A program made the position numbers and the translations under genes. Shown in pieces: positions 32,877 through 34,719 of a stretch of DNA of 64,000 bases (positions within the stretch are counted from its first letter, which is position 1; the number at the start of each line of letters is the position of its first letter). Source of the DNA: Fidelibacterota bacterium (lineage in GTDB: Bacteria > Fidelibacterota > Marinisomatia > Marinisomatales > Marinisomataceae). Under the pieces are notes generated by a model. That model was given only the letters and a program-made list of their open reading frames with translations. It had not been told where the DNA came from and did not search any database. The stretch is taken from positions 595,907-659,906 of the forward strand of contig JBJKZL010000001.1 in NCBI GenBank assembly GCA_045560295.1, given 5' to 3'.

Positions 32877-34719
32877 TTATTCCACCGTTACAGATTTTGC
32901 TAAATTTCTTGGTTGATCTACATTTAGTTTTTTACTAACTGCTATATAATATGCAAACAATTGAAGGACTATTGTTGCTAAATGACAAAACATGAAATGA
33001 TTTGTTTTTGGTACAAGGATTAAATCATTTGCAAGATCTCTTAAAATCTTATCTCTTGAATCTGTAATGATAATAATTTTTCCTTTTCTAGATTTTATTT
33101 CTTCAATATTTGAAATGATTTTATCATAAGTTTTGTCTTTTGGTACAATAAAGACATTTGGCATATTCTTATCAACTAAAGCAATGGGACCATGCTTCAT
33201 TTCAGCAGCTGGATATCCCTCTGCATGAATATAAGATATCTCTTTTAATTTTAGTGCTCCTTCTAAAGCTATAGGAAAATTAAGACCTCTTCCCAAATAC
33301 AAAAAATCATTAGCATTTTTATATTTTAAAGCAATTTTTTTGATTTCATTTTCTTTTTTAAGCACATTTCTAATTTTTTTCATGCTGTCATCAAAATCTA
33401 GATGAGCTTTAAGAGATGCTTTGCTTATAGTATCATTTGAAGCTGCTAATTTAAGTGCTAAAAGATATAAAATACTTATTTGCGCAGTAAATGCTTTAGT
33501 TGATGCAACACCTACTTCATGACCACATCTTGTAAAAACTCCACAATTTGTTTCTCTAGATACTGAACTTCCAGGAACATTACAAAGACCAACTGTAATT
33601 GCTCCATATTCATTAGCTTTTTTTATTGCAGCAAGAGTATCAGCTGTTTCACCTGATTGTGAAATAGCAATTACAACGCTATTATTATCAACTAAAGTTT
33701 TATTATATCTAAACTCGGAAGCATATTCAACATGAACGGGTATCTTTGCAAATCTTTCAATTAAATTTTTACCTATAAGTCCAGCATGCCATGAGGTACC
33801 ACAAGCAGTAATAAATATCTTATCTGCTTCTTTGATTTGAGCCCAATAATCAAGTAATCCATTAAGATAAACTCTATCTTTTGTTGCTCTACCTGTAATA
33901 GTATTTCTAATAGTATCAATTTGTTCATGAATTTCTTTATGCATAAAGTATTTAAACTTACCTTTATCATAATCATCAATTTTGAAATCTATTTTTTCAA
34001 CTTTTTTTGGAAGACTCACATCTTTATCAATTGAAGTTATTTTATATTCATCATCATTAATAATTACCATTTGAGAATCTTCAAGATATATAATTTGCTG
34101 AGTATGTTTAATAATTGGAGAAACATCACTACCGATAAAAAATTCATTATCTTTAACACCTAAAACTAGCGGACTTCCTTTTCGAGCAGCTATCATCATA
34201 TCTGGTTCTTTCTTATTTAATACAACAATTCCATAAGCTCCGTCTACTCTTTGAAGAGCAGCTCTAACAGATTGTTCAAAATTTAGCTTTCCTTTATTGA
34301 AGAAATAACCAATCAATTGAACTAATACTTCTGTATCAGTTTCAGACTTAAATTTCACTTTTTTTGATTTTAAAAATTTTTTAATTGGATTATAATTTTC
34401 TATAATTCCATTATGAACTAAAACAATATTTCCTGATTGATCTTTGTGTGGATGAGCATTGATTTGATTCGGCTTTCCATGAGTAGCCCAGCGTGTATGT
34501 GCAATTCCTGCACCGTCACAATCTTGAAACTTTCCATTAACTTTAAGCCCTTGCTCTAACTGAATTACTTTTCCACTTCTTTTTGTAATTCTAATTTTGT
34601 CATTTGATAGGCAAGCAACACCCGCTGAATCATAACCTCTATATTCTAAGTCGATGTAATCCATCTATCAAAATTGGATAACAATTTTTTGGGCCTTTAT
34701 ATGCTACTATTCCACACAT
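32877..34719 (-). CDS. glmS: Glutamine--fructose-6-phosphate aminotransferase. The first 24 codons (with catalytic Cys) are in a different frame from the rest and need a +1 frame change at 34647-34656.
   Basis: ATG at 34719 gives [24 protein letters not shown] then a stop after two more codons. ORF 32877-34664 supplies [11 protein letters not shown]... through two SIS domains to the C-terminal NLAKSVTVE. Joined, this is a canonical GlmS. Confidence 0.9.

Follow-up and report, generated by a model that had tools for sequence, protein, structure and literature searches.

The glmS gene of a Fidelibacterota bacterium raises the question of how to read a gene in which the start codon and the catalytic cysteine stand in one reading frame and nearly all of the remaining enzyme in another. 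The gene lies in a stretch of 64,000 nucleotides (assembly GCA_045560295.1, contig JBJKZL010000001.1, positions 595,907 to 659,906), here called the window, whose relatives are SAR406 / Marinimicrobia (Fidelibacterota) with a G+C content of ~30%. An earlier note on this DNA had described the frame break and left open whether it reflects biology. The anatomy given there was found to be right, whereas a conserved or programmed frameshift received no support from the comparative data. Judged from sequence comparison, the extra T in glmS and an extra C in a second broken gene, dsbD, are probably single-base consensus insertion errors of one metagenome-assembled genome (MAG), and not part of the DNA of the organism.

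On the minus strand, the 5′ glmS frame opens at ATG 34719 and closes at the stop codon 34639-34641, and the junction reads CAT CGA CTT AGA ATA TAG in frame 0 and C TTA GAA TAT AGA in frame +1 (Table 1). In the deposited sequence MCGIV... is encoded in frame 0 and the other 589 residues in frame +1, the Cys being out of frame with the body of the enzyme. The long open reading frame (ORF) was recorded by the NCBI annotation pipeline PGAP as MFL2500866.1 and labelled as ordinary GlmS; its product begins with MDYIDL, followed by the GlmS sequence EYRGYDSAG.... Joining both parts at HRL|EYRG yields a protein of 613 aa, which matches the glmS equivalog TIGR01135 over its full length with 766.5 bits (cutoff 418, profile positions 1-607), including one GATase and two SIS regions, and aligns with E. 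coli GlmS (4AMV) from Met1-Cys2 through the C-terminal VTVE. The 595-aa ORF scores 738 bits on the same profile and matches from position 23 only; positions 1-22 with the N-terminal Cys are missing. An N-terminal Cys is the nucleophile of Ntn-type (N-terminal nucleophile, class II) glutamine amidotransferases. Because this residue is not in its frame, the 595-aa product should be inactive on its own.

The earlier note had read both frames and the stop codon in the same way, had seen that the joined protein reproduces the GlmS N-terminus and that the product of the long ORF lacks the nucleophile, and had remarked on the absence of a homopolymer at the break, all of which was borne out. The interval of 10 nt (34647-34656) in which it had placed the extra base is also correct and could be narrowed to one T of the TT doublet 34648-34649. 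The genes it had named from the same window, uppP/BacA, a PASTA protein and an LppC/LpoA-like gene, were all found. Within the 64 kb there is no second glmS, and neither a glmS ribozyme nor another cis-regulatory RNA was detected in the window, the Rfam matches comprising only the rRNA operon and two tRNAs.

Table 1. Coordinates of the two frame breaks in the window and of the reading frames on either side of them.
Feature	Position	Strand	Remarks
glmS 5′ fragment, 26-aa ORF	34639..34719	minus	start codon and Cys2 nucleophile; aligns with E. coli GlmS residues 1-24
glmS main ORF, 595 aa, +1 frame	32877..34664	minus	true GlmS coding resumes at TTA 34649-34647
break-point hexamer CTTAGA (glmS)	34645..34650	minus	frame 0 CTT AGA; frame +1 C TTA GA
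dsbD 5′ fragment, 161 aa from ATG 5147, DsbD_N domain, PGAP MFL2500834.1, ends ...EFILREWKYKRSIYC*	4662..5147	minus	
dsbD 3′ ORF, 485 aa, +1 frame, DsbD_TM and thioredoxin	3341..4798	minus	true coding resumes at TTA 4699-4697
second break-point hexamer CTTAGA (dsbD)	4695..4700	minus	extra base is C at 4700, splitting a TTTT run

The identity of the extra base in glmS was deduced from close relatives. Four independent metagenome contigs (L013-L016), 97.4-97.9% identical to the window over glmS, all read CAT CGA CTA GAA TAT, and the extra base is the sole gap in the gene relative to them; for two of the four, L015 and L016, the identity to the window is 99.24% across 12.2 kb. Because these contigs read CGA CTA GAA TAT, the extra base is one T, changing CTA to CTTA at 34648/34649. 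Contigs L022, L024 and L027, which have an identical neighbouring protein in common, carry CGT TTA GAA instead, as does L010, so that the Leu codons CTA and TTA both segregate at this site. The form CTTA occurs in none of these seven contigs of the same or a closely related population (L013-L016, L022, L024, L027). Among more distant relatives (L001-L010, 57-94% amino-acid identity) glmS is in frame at the DNA level in 10 of 10, and the best 120 GlmS protein homologs are all 612-614 aa long with 100% coverage, begin with MCGIV and in many cases are 97-98% identical. The earlier note had named close relatives without the extra base as the finding that would refute its observation, and this is what the comparison shows: 17 DNA relatives and 120 of 120 protein homologs are in frame. 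Among about 15 billion proteins, the 595-aa GlmS is known from the 729,001-bp source contig of the MAG only, and the 161-aa DsbD fragment likewise from this contig alone. Two scans of JGI (Joint Genome Institute) metagenome DNA with a pattern covering both alleles gave no TT allele, the first of them run without a positive control and thus saying little, and returned just one distant intact glmS (L017).

Two relatives show glmS defects of other kinds. In L008 (BOWX01000002.1, CM1_5m.P33; 3001-4852), another MAG of this clade, the gene contains an in-frame TGA at about codon 39, a terminal frame change and, when compared with L003, about ten insertions of one base each, and resembles an error-laden long-read assembly. 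In L030 an extra G follows an A7 run, at a site other than CTTAGA.

The second break was missing from the earlier note. It lies in dsbD, 30 kb from glmS, and shows the same hexamer. At its full listed extent the 5′ ORF of dsbD (4662-5189) comprises 175 aa; the zero frame ends with ...EFILREWK, and the junction peptide in the +1 reading is TVEFILESGNIR. At this site GAA TTT ATT TTA GAG AGT stands in ten of ten independent contigs whose identity over 7.6 kb is 99.0-99.6%, whereas the window has ATT CTTA GAG, the insertion being the sole gap in these 7.6 kb. In the more distant contigs L018-L021 the site is TTA or TTG. None of 14 DNA relatives has a split dsbD. Of the best 120 DsbD homologs, one (P0191) is partial and cut at a contig end, and the other 119 are undivided, complete proteins of 587-660 aa. 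The insertion-bearing sequences at the breaks in glmS and dsbD are CGACTTAGAA and ATTCTTAGAG, respectively.

Two further DsbD records are unusual in their own right. P0243, from an ENA contig of 1,342 nt, is a DsbD fragment that begins with MCIRDS and ends with ...AVSYTHLTLPTILRV; at both contig ends this looks like translated sequencing-adapter sequence. P0251 (433 aa, from an ENA contig of 1,052,385 bp that belongs to another assembly) is a DsbD shortened at about residue 433, where homologs vary in length (P0253 has ~60 extra residues), and may be another long-read frame break.

The only aspect beyond the ordinary is that the two independent breaks share one and the same hexamer, which resembles a slip site. 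Both insertions yield the same sequence with the same relation of frames, CTT AGA in frame 0 and (C)TTA GAR in frame +1, the latter encoding the Leu-Glu of all homologs. Only 0.12% of all possible single-base insertions into genes of the window create an in-frame CTT AGA, and the probability that two random insertions share their junction codon pair is about 0.002; for convergence on one hexamer with the same relation of frames it is about 0.001-0.002. Chance is therefore a poor explanation, and some sequence-specific process is needed.

The number of mutations available on this branch bears on the same point. Our comparison set consisted of population contigs of at least 97% identity (mostly 99.0-99.7%), whose combined coverage of the window is 52,418 of its 64,000 bases. 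Private substitutions of the window amount to 15 in 47.9 kb, namely 8 synonymous changes, 5 nonsynonymous positions (4 conservative residue changes) and 2 intergenic ones; this branch is very short and has passed the filter of selection, yet two frameshifts in conserved genes lie on it. If insertions are taken, as is commonly assumed, to occur at about one twentieth of the substitution rate, a branch with ~8 private synonymous changes would be expected to carry ~0.002 insertions of this kind, not two. Tolerance by ribosomal slippage filters mutations but cannot make them, so that two such insertions on a short branch remain unexplained by it. Likewise, selection acting on random real insertions cannot give CTT AGA twice, and a context-specific generator is needed, of which technical errors are the commonest kind.

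A consensus error in the MAG remains as the preferred reading because whatever generated the insertions must depend on the sequence, be confined to one assembly and take no account of selection. The actual glmS would then be CAT CGA CTA GAA TAT, encoding a normal GlmS of 613 aa, and the common product CTTAGA would point to a context-specific error of basecalling, consensus building or polishing and not to random noise. The MAG was probably assembled from long reads, since a metagenomic contig of 729,001 bp with an rRNA operon suggests this, and a technical cause is likewise probable for both insertions. The lesions are also confined to one assembly, as assembly errors should be, the population assemblies being intact at both sites. 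Many frameshift 'pseudogenes' in public genomes have been reported to be technical (PMC11017572), and in Nanopore assemblies the errors that remain are typically indels (PMC9262707). A large marine study with hybrid MAGs found SAR406 under-represented in the Illumina polishing reads 6x on average (up to 18-fold) and strain heterogeneity to be high (PMC13558084); this study serves as context only, as the present MAG could not be linked to it. The glmS of L008 with its many insertions belongs to the same background. With the spurious indel pseudogenes of long-read and hybrid assemblies (PMC11017572, PMC9262707) our case shares a single-base indel in one assembly with which near-identical genomes disagree, and a gene that is otherwise intact and under purifying selection. 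Unlike them, it shows no homopolymer, no other indel errors in 52 kb and an identical hexamer twice.

These differences are part of a larger body of observations that weigh against a consensus error. The assembly is very clean in other respects: in the 52.4 kb compared, the insertions in glmS and dsbD are the only private indels, and not one of 228 A/T homopolymers of at least 6 nt (76 of them at least 7 nt) has a wrong length, which is not the usual profile of long reads. Neither break lies in a homopolymer, that is, in the typical context of such errors. A T was inserted into CTAGA in one case and a C into TTTTAGA in the other, although the resulting hexamer is the same, and none of the simple mechanisms considered below would turn both contexts into CTTAGA. 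Of 183 YTAGAR contexts only 2 carry an insertion, which a simple error tied to the motif would not explain. Finally, CTT_AGA_R falls within the CUU-AGN group of known +1 slip sites (PMC7814300, PMC3711429).

The remainder of the comparison contains no further gaps of this type. Two stretches of ~20 kb each are without any gap against three to six contigs, and an intergenic difference of 4 nt proved to be a shared polymorphism and is not private to the window.

Several specific sources of the insertions were considered and rejected. A systematic error at CTAG, for example at a methylated motif, does not fit as a simple rule: the window contains 160 CTAG sites, it retains 24 where L015 has 27, and the true dsbD sequence is TTAG and not CTAG. 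Merging of CTA and TTA haplotypes would suit glmS, where both alleles exist, but at dsbD all ten of ten population contigs have TTA (TTA or TTG in L018-L021); as a general cause it is unsupported. A hotspot of T duplication was ruled out by dsbD, where a C is inserted inside TTTT, and a synthetic spike-in by the presence of the two broken products among the NCBI PGAP proteins.

If the insertions are artefacts, the annotations MFL2500866.1 (a 'GlmS' without nucleophile) and MFL2500834.1 (a DsbD stub) are wrong, and a loss of amino-sugar synthesis or of DsbD should not be inferred for this SAR406 MAG. It would also mean that a very clean long-read MAG can still hold rare, context-specific insertions outside homopolymers. 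The finding appears to say little about the biology of glmS itself.

A different explanation is that both insertions are real and inactivating, either as a recent loss of glmS and dsbD in cells that salvage amino sugars or as deleterious hitch-hikers in a local clonal bloom. Auxotrophies are well known in streamlined marine bacteria, the frame breaks do stand in the deposited sequence, and the stretch that contains glmS is hypervariable in the population, with 40 of the 88 mismatches to L015 in the 1.84 kb of the gene. We nevertheless consider this explanation unlikely. Neither gene has a further lesion or an excess of private nonsynonymous change, and the other private substitutions are selection-filtered, contrary to an unfiltered mutational load. 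The repaired GlmS contains 0 residues unseen among 96 intact homologs, and its private codon changes number about five, three synonymous and two nonsynonymous (I378L and residue 66 to Asp). The 'plain pseudogene' that the earlier note had allowed for is unsupported, because the repaired gene shows no decay. Relaxed selection on glmS, which the 40 mismatches had led us to suspect, was ruled out too: population contigs differ among themselves in glmS by up to 63 nt, the window is no outlier, and few of its changes are private. In addition, two independent losses would leave the common hexamer unexplained, neither lesion is present in any other member of the population, and a lethal allele should not dominate in a MAG, which is a population consensus. 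For dsbD there is also a functional argument: the window contains a COX2 gene with a cytochrome c domain, for which DsbD should still be needed.

Alternatively, the insertions could be real in the SAR406 population and read through by +1 slippage. A tRNA-Leu on CUU in the P site would slip onto UUA, with GAA or GAG as the next codon, and thereby restore Leu-Glu and full-length GlmS and DsbD; a +1 frameshift similar to those of Ty1, EST3 and ND3 would have arisen twice de novo. The appeal of this idea lies in the shared site: the same in-frame CTT_AGA_R stands at both breaks, its +1 reading gives exactly the Leu-Glu of the homologs, and insertions of two different bases lead to a single product, for which the chance is about 0.002. 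The site also matches CUN+AGU of bird and turtle ND3 (PMC7814300) and CTT_AGG_C and CTT_AGT_T of yeast (PMC3711429). That neither gene has decayed, that the assembly is free of indel errors elsewhere and that lethal alleles should not dominate a population consensus would all agree with it. The sequence at both sites permits re-pairing from CUU to UUA, which would need a tRNA-Leu(UAG) reading CUU; no tRNA-Leu or tRNA-Arg gene was found in the window or in the sequences of relatives searched.

The decoding context, however, argues against slippage, and we regard it as quite unlikely. AGA in the A site is the commonest Arg codon in genes of the window (337 of 494) and is not expected to be decoded slowly. 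In-frame CTT AGA is not avoided, with 6 other sites observed versus 7.3 expected, and at the 4 of these that could be tested the sequence is identical in the population and encodes Leu-Arg. Folding z-scores of -0.29 and +0.05 at the two breaks are like those of four control CTT AGA sites and give no stimulatory RNA structure, and a shared upstream motif is not visible by eye. Both alleles are missing from every other assembly at an identity of at least 99%, and by the rate argument above two such rare insertions are not expected on a branch with ~8 private synonymous changes.

Known frameshift systems illustrate both sides. In yeast, Ty1 and ABP140 (CUU_AGG_C) and EST3 (CUU_AGU_U) have a P-site CUU that re-pairs on UUA and is followed by AGN, the +1 shift giving the correct protein, as would be the case here. 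Those sites are conserved and have a slowly decoded A-site codon, whereas ours are private to one assembly and contain the most used Arg codon, AGA; the heptamer is avoided elsewhere in yeast (PMC3711429) and is not avoided in the window. ND3-174+1 of bird and turtle mitochondria is similar in that a single extra base lies in a Leu CUN codon before AGN in a housekeeping gene (PMC7814300); it is tolerated by +1 frameshifting and arose several times (PMC7814300). In those mitochondria many species have conserved both the extra base and its context, and AGU in the A site is a rare codon, in contrast to the lack of conservation and of a rare codon in our case.

It is thus decidedly improbable that slippage at CUU_AGA_R arose de novo, through real insertions, in two housekeeping genes of this free-living bacterium with its streamlined genome. 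If true, it would imply that CUU-A is intrinsically prone to shifting in the lineage, the cause being, for example, a single tRNA-Leu(UAG) with unmodified U34 or weak m1G37 modification, and many more such sites would be predicted across the 729-kb contig. It would be the first case in which core genes of a free-living bacterium acquired a tolerance of +1 frameshifts of the Ty1/ND3 type, and a natural handle on how tRNA-Leu decoding limits the maintenance of the reading frame in streamlined genomes.

The notion that the 595-aa ORF product (MDYIDLEY...) is a functional enzyme by itself could appeal to its PGAP annotation as a normal protein and to its score on TIGR01135, but is very improbable on the sequence, as the first 22 profile positions with the Cys nucleophile are missing and every homolog starts with MCGIV. 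A conserved, regulatory programmed +1 frameshift in glmS of the kind known from prfB is effectively refuted by the comparison and hardly conceivable: CTT_AGA resembles CTT_TGA_C and CTT_AGG_C (PMC3711429), and nothing else speaks for it, while the break is conserved at no depth (0 of 17 DNA relatives at 57-99% identity and 0 of 120 protein homologs), the A site has neither a rare nor a stop codon, and neither a downstream RNA structure nor a visible upstream motif is present, whereas prfB (RF2, release factor 2), with CUU_UGA_C likewise bacterial, shifting by +1 and having CUU in the P site, combines an A-site stop codon, an upstream Shine-Dalgarno-like stimulator and conservation in many genera (PMC3711429), none of which apply here.

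Apart from the frame break, the surroundings of glmS are variable. The gene (32877-34719) with its flanks forms a hypervariable island in comparison with L015, L016 and L027-L031, with ~2.2% divergence versus ~0.5% in the flanks, and glmS alleles of down to 80-91% identity occur beside neighbours that are 98-99% identical. Many short-read contigs stop in or just before the gene, and the gene content downstream of it varies among contigs. In L031 (72-1052) a gene for an HNH endonuclease of 326 aa (PF01844, 25.9 bits) is located directly upstream of the lumazine-binding gene, at the place of glmS in the window, and in L026 (2425-3633) and L027 (2309-3517) a CobW gene of 402 aa is inserted after the lumazine-binding gene. 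By analogy, this variable region recalls glmS-adjacent insertion hotspots (attTn7-like).

Other irregularities were noted in the relatives at sites other than CTTAGA. L051 contains a tandem duplication of 34 nt in the transketolase gene (tkt) and a rearrangement in fadB, and in L047 a glycosyltransferase gene is split by a nonsense change without an indel. At the ends of L049-L051 (window 44239-44850), short-read contigs enter the 16S rRNA gene and turn mosaic, with reduced identity and small indels in clusters. Such a pattern is typical of rRNA genes that were collapsed or made chimeric in assembly, here in the relatives, and does not concern the window. Within the window, an ORF of 169 aa (39891-40400, minus strand) overlaps the 5S rRNA (40353-40470, minus strand) by 48 nt, its listed start probably lying too far upstream. 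A sulfatase gene of 565 aa (35225-36922, minus strand), located between a GNAT gene and guaA, is missing from the syntenic contig L001 and represents a difference in gene content at the species level.

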